Of a DNA stretch of 7,422 nt, positions 1-7,422 are shown piece by piece. The first letter of the stretch is position 1. Every line of letters starts with the position of its first letter. The translations under genes were made by a program, and so were the position numbers. Origin of the DNA: a bacterium (GTDB taxonomy: Bacteria > UBP7 > UBA6624 > JBBIMK01); contig JBBIMK010000028.1 in assembly GCA_037444445.1 (NCBI GenBank), forward strand, positions 1 through 7,422, in the 5' to 3' direction. The notes beneath the pieces are model-generated. The model was not told where the DNA came from. It did no database searches and saw only the letters and a program-made list of their open reading frames with translations.

Positions 1-35
1 CGTTATACGCCATGCCTGTGGGAGATGATGAATAA

Positions 36-494
36 ATGAGAAGAAAAATCAAGGTATATCTGGATACATCCGTAATATCAGCGTTGTTTGACCAGAGGAA
101 CCCAGAAAGAAGATGGTTTACCCAGTCATTTTTTGATGAGATACGCAATTTTGAGTCTTATATTTCTGATATTGTTAATATAGAGATTGATAGAACCCCA
201 AACCTTGTATTGAGAGATAAAATGAAAGAAGTTGCCTCGCAATTGCCTACTATTCCGCTGACCGATGATGTGGAATGGTTAGCAAATGAATATGTCCGCT
301 ACGGTGCTATACCTAAAGGATATCCTGAGGATGCATCTCATATCGCTATCGCTACTCTCTACGAAGTAGATTGTCTTGTTAGCTGGAATTTCAAGCATAT
401 TGTCCGGAGAAAGACAAAGAATATCGTAAGAATGGTAAATACCATTCATGGGCTACGAGAGATCGAAATATTAACACCAGCAGAACTGATGTAG
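36..494 (+). CDS. PIN-domain (VapC-like) putative ribonuclease, copy 1
   Basis: The 152-aa ORF has a PIN-like layout: KVYLDTSV (Asp10), IEID (Glu50), PEDASHIAIA (Asp99) and LVSWNFKHI near the C-terminus. A gap-free hand alignment with the 861-1319 paralog gives about 84/152 identities. The first 19 residues are identical despite several synonymous nucleotide differences, which indicates purifying selection. GGGAG lies upstream of the ATG. Confidence 0.8.
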   Translation: MRRKIKVYLDTSVISALFDQRNPERRWFTQSFFDEIRNFESYISDIVNIEIDRTPNLVLRDKMKEVASQLPTIPLTDDVEWLANEYVRYGAIPKGYPEDASHIAIATLYEVDCLVSWNFKHIVRRKTKNIVRMVNTIHGLREIEILTPAELM

Positions 495-505
495 GGGGTG
501 TGAAC

Positions 506-730
506 ATGCGCAAGAAGCTCCTGAAAAAGGAAATAAGCAAAATTACGAAAGAAATCCAAAAAGAATTTCCTGAGGATTCAGCATTACAAGAAGTTCATAT
601 TGCAAGAAAAATCATTGCAAAAGAAGCGGAAATGGCAGGAATGAGCTATATTAAATACATCCAATCATGGAAAGAAAAGCTTGAAAGGAAAGCCCGGGAT
701 AAAAACAATATCAGCGACAATGGAACATGA
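506..730 (+). CDS. Small charged protein of unrecognised family, putative cognate partner (antitoxin?) of the PIN protein, copy 1
   Basis: The ORF starts at ATG 506 (alternative GTG 500), 7 nt after GGGGG (494-498), which overlaps the PIN stop TAG (492-494). It shares FPxDxALQEVHxAR, GMS and KYI motifs with the small ORF at 1332-1517. It is Lys/Glu-rich and looks helical. I recognise no DNA-binding fold. Confidence 0.65.
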   Translation: MRKKLLKKEISKITKEIQKEFPEDSALQEVHIARKIIAKEAEMAGMSYIKYIQSWKEKLERKARDKNNISDNGT

Positions 731-739
731 ACATAGCAC

Positions 740-835
740 GGCGTATAACACAGCATAAAAGGTTCCCCCGATGTCCTTCGGGGTCACCCAAATTCCGCCT
801 TCGCCGGAACTTCTTTTATCCGCGAAACGTTAGGC
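740..835 (+). repeat. attC-like structured element A (3' end of unit 1)
   Basis: GTATAAC (743-749) is followed by a 5-nt spacer and ATAAAAG (755-761), which is the exact complement of CTTTTAT (813-819). The element ends in GTTAGGC (829-835), matching GTTRRRY. Internal hairpins are CCCCGA/TCGGGG (766-771/778-783) and TTCCG/CGGAA (793-797/805-809). It is homologous along its length to element B. Confidence 0.45.
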
Positions 836-860
836 GACATGCCTATAAGGAAAGAATTGA

Positions 861-1319
861 ATGAGAAGAAAGATTAAAGTATATTTAGATACATCAGTTA
901 TATCAGCACTGTTTGATGAAAGAAACCCTCGAAGGCAGTTCTTAACCCAACTTTTCTTTGAAAGGATAGAGGGTTTTGATGCCTGTGTGTCTGAAGTGGT
1001 CCTGGCAGAAATTGATGATACCAAAAACAAACGTTTGAGAGAGATGTTGAGGGAAACGGCGATTTCTTTTAAACTTTTGCCAATAGAGGAGGAAAGTAGA
1101 CAATTAGCTGAAGAATATGTAAGGCATAATGCTATCCCCTCAGATTACCCTGAAGATGCGTTACATATTTCTATTGCCACAGTAAATGCAATGGATTATT
1201 TGCTTAGCTGGAATTTTGAGCACATCGTTAAAGTTAAGACACGGAGGATTGTAAACATGGTAAATGCCTCTTCAGGCTATCCAGATTTAGAAATTATAAC
1301 GCCTGCGGAACTAATATAG
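861..1319 (+). CDS. PIN-domain (VapC-like) putative ribonuclease, copy 2 (paralog of 36-494)
   Basis: The 152-aa ORF aligns with copy 1 without gaps. The same residues are conserved: Asp10, Glu50, Asp99 and SWNFEH. AAGGAAAG lies 8-14 nt upstream of the ATG. Confidence 0.8.
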   Translation: MRRKIKVYLDTSVISALFDERNPRRQFLTQLFFERIEGFDACVSEVVLAEIDDTKNKRLREMLRETAISFKLLPIEEESRQLAEEYVRHNAIPSDYPEDALHISIATVNAMDYLLSWNFEHIVKVKTRRIVNMVNASSGYPDLEIITPAELI

Positions 1320-1331
1320 GAGGTGATAGCC

Positions 1332-1517
1332 ATGAAAAAAAAAGATAAGCTTTGGGAAAAAGTGAAAAAGGATTTTCCAAATGACCCCGCACTTCAGGAA
1401 GTTCATTATGCGCGCTTAAAAATTCATGAGGAAACAAAAGGAATGAGCCCGGATGAATTTGTGAAATATATCAAAAAAAAGGCAAATAATGTTCTGAAAC
1501 GAAGGAGGGGAATCTAA
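1332..1517 (+). CDS. Small charged protein, putative PIN partner, copy 2
   Basis: ATG 1332 sits 9 nt after GGAGG (1318-1322), which overlaps the PIN stop TAG (1317-1319). The ORF track's alternative start is GTG 1323. It contains FPNDPALQEVHYAR, GMS, KYI and a basic tail KRRRGI. Confidence 0.65.
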   Translation: MKKKDKLWEKVKKDFPNDPALQEVHYARLKIHEETKGMSPDEFVKYIKKKANNVLKRRRGI

Positions 1518-1534
1518 AATGGAACCGTCACTTC

Positions 1535-1655
1535 ATATAACGCCGCATCTGCCTGCATCCGCAGGACAGGCAGGGAAAAGTCTCGCCCCGATAACCATCG
1601 GGCTCACCCAGATTTTTGCTTTGCAAAACCTTCTGTTATGCCGGGAACGTTGGGC
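1535..1655 (+). repeat. attC-like structured element B (3' end of unit 2)
   Basis: It begins ATATAAC (1535-1541) and ends GTTGGGC (1649-1655). Hairpins are CCCGAT/ATCGGG (1587-1592/1597-1602) and TTTTGC/GCAAAA (1614-1619/1623-1628). It aligns with element A, with an extra hairpin inserted at ~1549-1569 (CCTGC-ATCC-GCAGG core). Confidence 0.45.
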
Positions 1656-1678
1656 GAAATTGTCGGTGGGGTGTGTAT

Positions 1679-2047
1679 ATGACACCTGAACTGAAGAAAC
1701 CTCGTGTCTTTCGTCTTCTCTGTGAAGATGCCCTGAAAATCCAACACACGCCTTTCGGCAAGGTCGGAAGGGTTTTCAAGGGCAAGGGGCTTGAAGCAGT
1801 CTGGGTGTCCAAACAGGAGGAAGCCATAGACCCTGAATGGTTCTCCCAGCCCATGGTGGACCTCATCGTTGTTCTGCAGGGTCAACTTCGCGTGGAATTT
1901 GAGCCCCGAACTGGTGTCGGAGGTCCTCTGGTGTTAGACCCTGGAGACCTTCTGGTTCTTCCTCCCAACACCCGTTGCCGGGCGTATCGTTGGCCACGGG
2001 ATAGGAAAGAGGCAACGGTATTTTTAGCCGTTTATCCTGCGGAATAA
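1679..2047 (+). CDS. Cupin-fold-like small protein (122 aa from ATG 1679)
   Basis: ATG 1679 is preceded by GGTGGGG (1666-1672). The segment VVLQGQLRVEF...GDLLVLPPNTRCRAYRW resembles the two beta-strand motifs of small cupins, but the usual metal-binding His residues are not evident. The TTG 1616 extension in the ORF track would run through element B. Confidence 0.55.
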   Translation: MTPELKKPRVFRLLCEDALKIQHTPFGKVGRVFKGKGLEAVWVSKQEEAIDPEWFSQPMVDLIVVLQGQLRVEFEPRTGVGGPLVLDPGDLLVLPPNTRCRAYRWPRDRKEATVFLAVYPAE

Positions 2048-2402: not shown

Positions 2403-3422
2403 ATGAGGGCGGTTGTATTTTATGGTTTTGAAAAAGGTGTGAAGGTGGAAGAATACCCACGCCCTGAAATTGGGGCTGGTGAAATTCTGGTGCGGGTGAA
2501 AGCCTGCGGGCTCTGCCAGACGGATCTGCACTATATAGACCATGGCACTCCAACCTTCAAGACTCCCCCTCTTATCCTGGGTCATGAAACTTCGGGAATT
2601 GTGGAAGAAGTGGCGGAGGATGTGAAAGGATTTCAGATAGGCGACCGGGTTCTCATCCCTCCGGTGGTCACCTGCGGAGCCTGCGAATACTGCAGAACGG
2701 GCAGGGAGAATATCTGCCTGAACCTGCGGATGTTCGGGAATCACATGGATGGGGCTTTCGCTGAGTTCGTCAAAGCCCCTGCGAAGGATGTGTTCCACCT
2801 GTTAGAATCTCTGCCCCTGGAGGAATCCAGCATCATCTCTGATGCGGTTTCCACGCCCTTTCACGCCCTTGTGAATCGAGCCCGGGTGAAGCCGGGGGAG
2901 TGGGTGGTGATCATCGGCTGTGGAGGCGTGGGAATGAATGCGGTGCAAATTGCAGTCCTTCTCGGCGCCCGGGTGATTGCCGTGGACATCGACCCTGGAA
3001 AACTTCAGCTGGCGAAGCAATTCGGAGCCCGGGAAGCCCTGAATCCGAAAGAAGTGGATGTGGCGAAGACGGTGCGTAAAATCACTGCCGGTGGTGCCGA
3101 TGTAGCAGCAGAAGTCATCGGGAATCCTGCCACGATTGAAACCGCTCTCGCCTGCTTGAAGACCGGTGGAAGAGCACTTCTCATCGGCTATGCAGTCAAA
3201 GATGCGGTTCTACCTGCAGGTCGTGTGATGTTCCGGGAACTTCAGATTCTCGGCTCACTCGGATGCAGGCCAGTGGATTATCCGAGAATTATTGCTCTCG
3301 TCGCGGAAGGAAAACTACAGGTCAAACCCCTCGTTACTCATCGCTTCCCTTTAGAGCGGTTTGAGGACGCCCTGAACACCCTCCGTTCGGGTGCCTGCCT
3401 TCGCACCCTCCTCATCCCCTGA
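2403..3422 (+). CDS. Zn-dependent medium-chain alcohol dehydrogenase/reductase (MDR family)
   Basis: The 339-aa ORF has catalytic Zn ligand motifs CGLCQTD and GHE. A structural Zn Cys cluster is present (CGACEYCRTGRENIC). The Rossmann nucleotide-binding motif is GCGGVG. A strong RBS, GGAGGGG, lies upstream. Confidence 0.9.
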   Translation: MRAVVFYGFEKGVKVEEYPRPEIGAGEILVRVKACGLCQTDLHYIDHGTPTFKTPPLILGHETSGIVEEVAEDVKGFQIGDRVLIPPVVTCGACEYCRTGRENICLNLRMFGNHMDGAFAEFVKAPAKDVFHLLESLPLEESSIISDAVSTPFHALVNRARVKPGEWVVIIGCGGVGMNAVQIAVLLGARVIAVDIDPGKLQLAKQFGAREALNPKEVDVAKTVRKITAGGADVAAEVIGNPATIETALACLKTGGRALLIGYAVKDAVLPAGRVMFRELQILGSLGCRPVDYPRIIALVAEGKLQVKPLVTHRFPLERFEDALNTLRSGACLRTLLIP

Positions 3423-3458
3423 GGGGTTGCTGGAGGGATAAACCTTCGCAAAAGGGCA

Positions 3459-3567
3459 ATATAACTTTCTCTACCCCAGCCCGCTTTTGGCGGTCTTCGT
3501 CAACGAAGTTGTCAGGATACGGTTAATCCCGACGGTTCCATCGGGACTCTGCCGGTTGAGCTACCCC
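3459..3567. other. Hairpin-rich intergenic element of unknown function
   Basis: Hairpins are CCGC/GCGG (~3481-3493), CTTCG-TCAA-CGAAG (3496-3509) and TCCCGA-N8-TCGGGA (3527-3546). It begins ATATAAC (3459-3465) and contains GTTGAGC (3555-3561). CTACCCC is a direct repeat at 3471-3477 and 3561-3567. Confidence 0.25.
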
Positions 3568-3627
3568 GGAAGCCACCACATCTCATTATACCACATAATC
3601 ATGCTGTTTGGCTTCTAACCACCCTCC

Positions 3628-7350: not shown

Positions 7351-7422
7351 ATGGGCAGTATTCATTTCTATATTCCCTGGAAACTGGTATATTCAGAGGA
7401 ATATCGGACCCGTGGGGAAGCC
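7351..7422 (+). CDS. Possible 5' end of a divergently transcribed gene (open to window end)
   Basis: ATG 7351 is preceded by AGAGGA and stays open for 24 codons (MGSIHFYIPWKLVYSEEYRTRGEA) to the window edge. It is too short to assess. Confidence 0.2.
   Translation, partial: MGSIHFYIPWKLVYSEEYRTRGEA

Follow-up and report, generated by a model that had tools for sequence, protein, structure and literature searches.

A complete integron comprises an intI gene for a tyrosine recombinase with an integron-specific insertion, plus an attI site and a Pc promoter beside the cassette array. Knowledge of integrons comes mainly from Proteobacteria. Integron sites are identified through their structure, and an attC site is expected to travel whole with its cassette. 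The definitions of integrons and of clusters of attC sites lacking an integrase (CALIN) are those of IntegronFinder (PMC4889954, PMC9024848), a CALIN being at least two model-detected attC sites with no intI within the cluster (PMC9024848). Here we describe positions 1 to 1655 of contig JBBIMK010000028.1, the left end of a 7,422-nucleotide (nt) stretch of bacterial DNA (the window), in which two units, each made of a PIN-domain gene, a small partner open reading frame (ORF) and a structured non-coding element, lie head to tail. Tentatively, with a confidence a little short of an even chance, we read them as the distal end of an integron-type cassette array with atypical, partly decayed sites and no nearby integrase. 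The observation itself, first made in a first-pass annotation from the sequence alone, is confirmed, and its integron interpretation is partly supported.

The locus resembles a CALIN, or the end of a sedentary chromosomal integron, in its co-oriented, promoterless cassettes of ~0.8 kb with G|TT boundaries. It resembles integron cassettes in that its R'' and R' cores lie one step from RYYYAAC and GTTRRRY, the cassette start complements R'', the L boxes pair and the centre of the site is structured; it resembles integrons more widely in that the sites resemble one another along the array and have a host-like composition, the ORFs are foreign, the cargo is toxin-like and the assemblies break at the sites. 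The features of the array and of the first DNA beyond it are as follows.

1..17, + strand: element 0, its 3' end together with the first bases of unit 1, with an R'-like GTTATAC at 2-8
3..829, + strand: putative cassette 1, from the TT of GTTATAC through the G of GTTAGGC; G+C 39.8%
36..494, + strand: PIN-domain protein 1, a putative VapC-like nuclease of 152 aa; Pfam PIN 22.9 bits
500..730, + strand: small partner ORF 1, 76 aa; GTG start at 500, ATG at 506
740..835, + strand: element A, attC-like, 96 nt; R'', L'', hairpins, L' and R' read from the sequence
736..766, + strand: 31-nt block GCACGGCGTATAACACAGCATAAAAGGTTC, module-specific 5' half of element A; identical in L051/L052
767..828, + strand: host-specific 3' half of element A; common to element B (1587-1648) and the first 60 nt of L014
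830..1649, + strand: putative cassette 2, with the architecture of unit 1; G+C 39.8%; start GTTAGGCGACATGCC
861..1319, + strand: PIN-domain protein 2, 152 aa; Pfam PIN 30.2 bits
1323..1517, + strand: small partner ORF 2, 64 aa; GTG start at 1323, ATG at 1332
1518..1655, + strand: element B; 5' half 1518-1585, 3' half 1586-1655 (limits in the first-pass annotation 1535-1655, 121 nt)
1656..2047, + strand: first DNA past the array; leader of 23 nt, then cupin gene (1679-2047); junction kept in the related strain L014

Both units carry their 152-aa PIN-domain ORF, small ORF and non-coding element in the same order and orientation, and they measure 827 nt (G2 to G829) and 820 nt (G829 to G1649), with the next ATG 34, 32 and 30 nt away from the successive GTT cores; the unit lengths, ORF order, core motifs and ATG spacing had all been given correctly in the first-pass annotation. 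Because positions 1-17 repeat 828-844 at 82% identity in the repeat finder, the first letters of the window belong to the end of a third element, and the array continues upstream of position 1. The G+C content is 36-38% in the ORFs, 53% in the elements and 46-55% in the neighbouring genes. A promoter scan found no promoter-like site in the 30-34-nt leaders and called none at either element.

The integron-like features are most complete in element A, in which the following parts can be read.

743-749, + strand: R'' GTATAAC, one departure from RYYYAAC
750-754, + strand: R''-L'' spacer, 5 nt
755-761, + strand: L'' ATAAAAG, exact complement of L'
766-783, + strand: hairpin 1
784-794, + strand: TCACCCAAATT, between the hairpins
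793-809, + strand: hairpin 2, TTCCG/CGGAA
813-819, + strand: L' CTTTTAT, pairing with L'' at 7/7
820-828, + strand: L'-R' spacer, 9 nt
829-835, + strand: R' GTTAGGC, exact match to GTTRRRY

Element A thus has both attC cores, with the AAC and GTT triplets in place, one departure in R'' and none in R'. The earlier reading of exact R' matches in both elements (GTTAGGC and GTTGGGC) and of an exact 7/7 L box pair in element A holds. So does its claim that the start of unit 1, GTTATACGCC (2-11), is the exact reverse complement of the unit's own downstream GGCGTATAAC (740-749): the match is 10/10, and in the repeat finder it grows to 14 nt at 93% (13/14; 2-15 with 736-749). By our own estimate, four perfectly matching nt within the cores plus 7/8 beyond them, at positions fixed by the two cores, have a chance of ~1e-6. 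GTTATAC of element 0 departs from the consensus once, and this departure is complementary to the one in the R'' of element A, so that the two cores deviate at paired positions (T in GTTATAC, A in GTATAAC). The same complementarity of cassette start and R'' was found in genuine class 1 cassettes, where it spans 12 nt in aadA2 and aadB, 11 in VIM-2 and 8 in arr-3, a range that the 10 nt of unit 1 match. When cassette 1 is circularised, its site folds at -28.0 kcal/mol on the - strand (z -6.46) vs -21.3 kcal/mol on the + strand (z -4.09). The better-folding - strand is the canonical bottom strand, whose favoured folding is predicted by the canonical attC orientation (PMC5027507).

The left boundary of the unit was located by comparison with loci of other genomes, given here by L numbers. 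Homology to the module in L051/L052, L011, L006 and L053 starts at GTTATA, and the sequences upstream are all unrelated.

Left junction in L051/L052: GCC|GTTATACACCATGCC
Left junction in L011: TAA|GTTATACGCCATGC
Left junction in L006/L010: AAC|GTTATATACTATGCC
Left junction in L053-L055: AAC|ATTATATACGATGCC

This GTT start of the cross-genome homology is the boundary predicted by G|TT integron recombination. Between the window and L051/L052, the homology runs from GTTATAC through 766 and includes 31 nt, GGCACGGCGTATAACACAGCATAAAAGGTTC, that are identical (window 736-766, L051 2078-2108), whereas the coding DNA is only ~72% identical. The start/R'' complementarity is also kept in L051, and the lone difference between the window and L051 within the arms is not compensated. 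The identical 31 nt take in the spacer, which an attC site need not conserve. A scan of viral contigs for the 31-nt block gave 17 matches, all of them chance. The arrays of Zixibacteria type in L006/L010 were considered as the same kind of array and rejected, as they have AAC|GTT junctions but intergenic folds no better than shuffles; no integrase domain was found in them.

PIN 1 scores 22.9 bits against Pfam PIN, just below the cut-off of 23.6, and PIN 2 scores 30.2 bits, above it. The best relatives of PIN 1 are 74-78% identical and lie in metagenome contigs labelled Zixibacteria and in others, and PIN 2 has about thirty relatives at 76-84% identity in other metagenomes and genomes; the labels of these relatives range from Zixibacteria to Methanosarcinales and Asgard archaea. 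Searches of viral contigs and of plasmids gave PIN relatives at no more than 31-37% identity (44% over one partial match), or none. Because the two PIN proteins of the array are 55% identical to each other (their partner ORFs 46%) but 78% and 84% identical to proteins elsewhere, they are members of different subfamilies that were acquired separately. These results support a view of the units as foreign, promoterless, separately acquired modules bounded at G|TT.

In VapBC systems, a PIN toxin is paired with a small antitoxin that is normally encoded upstream. PIN relatives are annotated as VapC family toxins in their source records. In both units of the window, and always in the relatives' loci examined, the small partner ORF is 3' of the PIN gene, whereas VapB usually precedes VapC; the partner ORFs share a conserved core, FP.D.ALQEVH.AR, and have no Pfam or NCBIfam match.

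In other genomes, the PIN gene and its partner sit in several settings. In L011 (9800-16900), modules of PIN plus partner, AAA_15, HNH and HicAB lie between tldD and pmbA, each separated by copies of the tldD 3' end (109-211 nt) plus the pmbA 5' start (300 nt). Modules have thus accumulated here at a hot spot between two core genes, and no integrase is visible nearby. In L041-L049, an identical PIN protein (P0084) follows four different upstream genes, and downstream of the module come a direct repeat of 13 nt, ATGTCGTTGACCT, and part of a gene with an MGS domain. In L053-L055 (e.g., L054 650-1480), the PIN module follows a parE-like gene cut at ~17 codons and is flanked by 14-nt direct repeats, TCCGGATGCATYGG; a perfect 11-bp hairpin (GCATCGGCATT...AATGCCGATGC) comes after the module.

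On the integron-type reading, two promoterless two-gene cassettes, each of a PIN nuclease and a small partner, would have been acquired separately and placed head to tail, each starting at the TT of a GTT core and ending with a recombination site that is an imperfect palindrome. A single strand of this site would fold, R'' pairing with R' and L'' with L'; a tyrosine recombinase of the IntI kind, encoded elsewhere, would cut between G and TT; and the cassette would be excised as a circle with a perfectly paired site and then re-inserted. In the cassette 1 circle, the junction would read ...GCGAAACG|TTATACGCC..., that is, ...CCGCGAAACG joined to TTATACGCCATGCC.... The integrase, if any, would lie upstream of the window. 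That the units recombine, that they depend on IntI for it and that single-stranded DNA is used is what we infer. The L014 contig, like the window, begins within the repeat, and such assembly breaks fit a site present in many copies. At this end, L014 has a variant that mixes A-like and B-like stretches ahead of the same cupin gene, and its positions 1-110 align with window 1588-1700.

Several results weigh against an integron-type array, and they concern in the first place the recognition of its sites. A covariance model was made from 11 class 1 attC sites, read from class 1 integrons that were drawn from plasmids with IntI1 as the query; IntegronFinder's own 96-site model is broader. As a control, the model found all eight attC sites outside the training set (those of qacL, psp-like, cmlA1, estX, aadA16, dfrA27, dfrA5 and a DUF1010 cassette), at 20.8-64.8 bits and on the correct strand. 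In the window, its top match on either strand is element A (743-835, + strand), at 10.6 bits with an E-value of 0.31 and through the R boxes only, which is noise level for a class 1-trained model whose background reaches 12.3 bits in 79 kb of unrelated loci; element B is unmatched, and the best score on the - strand is lower, 6.4 bits. The first-pass annotation had proposed an attC covariance model as the check on its reading, and with the class 1-trained model none of the three repeat copies (0, A and B) is significant, an outcome that is negative or at best inconclusive.

The geometry of element A is also unlike that of integron attC sites. In canonical attC sites, both arms have spacers of 5-6 nt, and the extrahelical bases belong to the L'' arm (PMC5027507). 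The 11 class 1 sites have a uniform 7-5-8...7-(5-6)-7 layout: an R'' of 7 nt, a spacer of 5, an L'' of 8 with one bulged base, an L' of 7, a spacer of 5-6 and an R' of 7, in line with PMC5027507. Element A, with spacers of 5 and 9 nt, has an L'' without an extrahelical base and carries its surplus unpaired bases on the GTT arm of the + strand, opposite to canonical top strands. On account of the side of these surplus bases, the - strand was considered as the attC top strand, and this reverse orientation was rejected because the cross-genome homology is sharp at position 2 and passes 749 and because the - strand scores lower. A relaxed structural finder gave about one chance match per kb; element A alone combines a 7/7 L pairing with at least 5 Watson-Crick R pairs, and the finder is too unspecific for its result to count as evidence.

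Element B departs further from a canonical site. Its readable parts are the following.

1587-1602, + strand: hairpin 1
1614-1628, + strand: hairpin 2, TTTTGC/GCAAAA
1633-1639, + strand: L' CTGTTAT, followed by a 9-nt spacer
1649-1655, + strand: R' GTTGGGC, exact match to GTTRRRY

An R'' had been assigned to element B at ATATAAC (1535-1541); the motif and its AAC triplet are present, but they are better read as part of an L'' box, the best L'' being ATAACGC (1537-1543), which makes five Watson-Crick pairs and one G-T pair with CTGTTAT (1633-1639). At the matching distance, element B has no AAC-bearing R'' (1525-1531 reads CCGTCAC), the opening GTTAGGCGACATGCC of unit 2 lacks a downstream complement, and the element folds weakly (z ~-2). 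The 5' half (1518-1585) holds a local hairpin, CTGCCTG...CAGGCAG, and is not significantly similar to element A or to the starts of the cassettes. Over their 3' 75 nt, elements A and B are 72% identical in the repeat finder, and, in favour of an integron-type array, structure is kept between the two despite changed sequence: hairpin 2 is TTCCG/CGGAA in A vs TTTTGC/GCAAAA in B, and one L pair has gone from A-T in A to C-G in B. Element B looks like a decayed terminal site. Two of the caveats of the first-pass annotation, the 9-nt L'-R' spacer and the poor complementarity between the start of unit 2 and element B, are real.

The remaining points against the integron-type array concern its surroundings. 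The homology with L051 ends at 766, inside element A, and not at the next G|TT, so that only the 5' half of the site has homology elsewhere; PIN modules in other genomes are flanked by direct repeats of host genes; and pattern scans (596 Gb of genomes; JGI metagenomes) gave chance matches only. No intI or attI was found in the window by a profile scan or in the 10 kb downstream in L014, and the statement in the first-pass annotation that the window holds no intI is borne out by the domain scan. Of the integron-cassette interpretation, the G|TT boundaries, the complementarity, the fold and the foreign modules thus stand, whereas the attC model, the geometry, the R'' of element B and the end of the homology go against it. 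An array that lacks a nearby integrase would be ordinary; what is unusual here is the combination of hybrid sites with failure against a working attC model.

From these comparisons, each element consists of a 5' half specific to its module and a 3' half specific to the host. No further copy of the host-specific half was found on either strand of the remaining 5.8 kb of the window or of 10.4 kb of L014, and 595 kb of fetched loci held none either. Pattern scans for this repeat gave 5 genome-contig and 4 metagenome-contig matches, all chance matches in coding DNA. A search of 1-1700 against Rfam was empty, also with E-values as high as 10 allowed.

The main rival explanation, which we hold to be somewhat unlikely, is a non-integron insertion hot spot 5' of the cupin gene, at which integrase-less modules pile up in tandem. 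A different site-specific recombinase could insert them at the AAC|GTT core, or circles formed by recombination between flanking repeats could integrate in the Campbell manner, each insertion leaving a copy of ~65-85 nt of host sequence. Such a hot spot would fit the repeated part (767-828, 1587-1648 and L014 1-60), which is host-like in G+C and is the only part that the elements share, and it would fit the end of the module's cross-genome homology at 766, where the repeated part starts, as well as the failure of the canonical attC model. The same PIN modules also lie elsewhere in arrays parted by host direct repeats (L011, L041-L049 and L053-L055). What it leaves unexplained are the 10-14-nt inverted complementarity, also kept in L051, the 7/7 L pairing across the module-specific and host-specific halves and the strong fold of the whole site; moreover, copies that are only 72-85% identical are a poor substrate for homologous recombination, and no recombinase gene is in view for this explanation either.

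Tandem accretion of integrase-less modules at one attachment site is known from cis-mobilisable elements beside integrative elements. The present array is like it in having recombinase-less, head-to-tail modules that are each followed by a host-derived copy, with the same cargo family in L011, L041-L049 and L053-L055. It is unlike it in that those arrays have direct target repeats, whereas here the complementarity is inverted and spans the module, and a short, structured repeat meets the module at an AAC|GTT core. If the locus were a plain hot spot, it would still mark a family of PIN gene pairs that moves among distant bacteria and archaea by several routes.

A second explanation, which we consider unlikely, places the features within the operon itself: the 5' end of a transcript starting from ~2 would pair with 736-749, or both arms would bind a regulator, and the shared 3' half would be a promoter, a terminator or a repeat resembling repetitive extragenic palindromes (REP), with no cassette recombination. 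Both arms are kept with the module elsewhere, and the identity of 736-766, unlike the coding DNA, points to a role that depends on the sequence itself; the partner ORF of L031 ends in the motif GGCGTATAA. A -10-like TTTTAT/TGTTAT sits 9 nt ahead of the G|TT boundary in the elements, so the boundary could be a transcription start, and hairpin 2 of element A followed by CTTCTTTTAT was flagged as terminator-like (one hairpin plus a T-rich run). These signals are set against the empty promoter scan at both elements and against hairpin 2 itself, which is weak in element B and absent from L014. The uncompensated arm difference between the window and L051 does not favour pairing of this kind, unit 2 has no such inverted repeat, and the shared 3' half also precedes the unrelated cupin gene. 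The side-by-side placing of two separately acquired modules would remain unexplained.

REP and bacterial interspersed mosaic elements (BIME) occur in many copies scattered through the intergenic regions of a genome. Like them, and like intrinsic terminators, the elements are small G+C-rich intergenic hairpins after operons, one with a T-rich run. Unlike REP or BIME, they are found only at the array within the ~16 kb of adjacent chromosome available, which argues against a dispersed repeat, their ends match the boundaries of the moved modules, and a whole element pairs from end to end only together with the first bases of its cassette.

A third possibility, which we regard as improbable, is that these are hybrid sites in the making, in which a travelling half-site (R'', spacer and L'') would be joined to a host half of ~65 nt that supplies L' and G|TT. 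If true, this would be a snapshot of the birth of attC sites and cassettes, or a distinct hairpin-site system with a non-canonical recombinase.

That a single PIN operon, together with its terminator or leader, was duplicated in tandem and then diverged, which the first-pass annotation had named as its null, is hardly credible and is refuted by the PIN identities (55% between the two here vs 74-78% for PIN 1 and 76-84% for PIN 2 with relatives elsewhere), by the unrelated 5' halves of A and B and by L014, whose last element at this junction is of another variant, even though the architecture is the same, the unit lengths are nearly equal and the elements are 72% identical over 75 nt.

Two further kinds of mobile element were considered. 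Xer-dependent dif modules (pdif) are similar in that small gene modules, often toxin-antitoxin pairs, are associated with short recombination sites, but an 11-6-11 site with inverted arms is missing here, the 31 nt having a direct ATAA...ATAA and not ATAA...TTAT; a Xer/dif-type site was rejected for want of the required inverted arms. Ends of the IS200 or IS91 type were rejected as well, since the required inverted arms or subterminal hairpins are missing.

Returning to the integron-type array, an array in a deep-branching uncultured lineage that preserves the logic of cassettes yet departs from the canonical rules on spacers and bulges would reveal the extent to which the site can drift and would mark a blind spot of current attC models, and the split into module-specific and host-specific halves gives a testable handle on the unsolved origin of attC sites. 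By a neighbouring GTPase, whose closest named relatives are from Bipolaricaulota at ~52% identity, the host is a deep-branching bacterium. In the papers searched, we found no link between integrons and Bipolaricaulota, Acetothermia or Zixibacteria.

To the right of 1655, the cupin gene is followed by a 73-aa ORF and a zinc alcohol dehydrogenase gene and then, in convergent orientation, by ABC-2 transporter genes, rmlD and trmO. A weak match to an S-adenosylmethionine (SAM) riboswitch on the - strand (3367-3459; 22.7 bits at E 0.17 vs a gathering threshold of 44.4) extends over the end of the dehydrogenase gene and is probably due to chance. A third element at 3455-3612 was considered and rejected, as the shared hairpin falls in a truncated tRNA-Asn region that in L014 holds an intact tRNA. 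On the - strand of the window, 3530-3590 contains only the 5' part (acceptor and D arm) of tRNA-Asn(GTT), fused to unrelated sequence, and ARAGORN calls no tRNA there. In L014 (1950-2301), the tRNA-Asn is intact and is accompanied by 322 extra nt that lie between direct repeats of 13 nt, CTCTGCCGGTTGA, and the window's version looks like the product of a deletion between these repeats. The 322 extra nt encode a small GIY-YIG/YhbQ-like protein (L014 ~1990-2230, - strand). At the right end of the window (7351-7422, + strand), positions 7368-7422, after trmO, are 93% identical to part of this GIY-YIG gene, and L014 has no GIY-YIG sequence after trmO, so the small GIY-YIG gene lies at different sites in the two strains.

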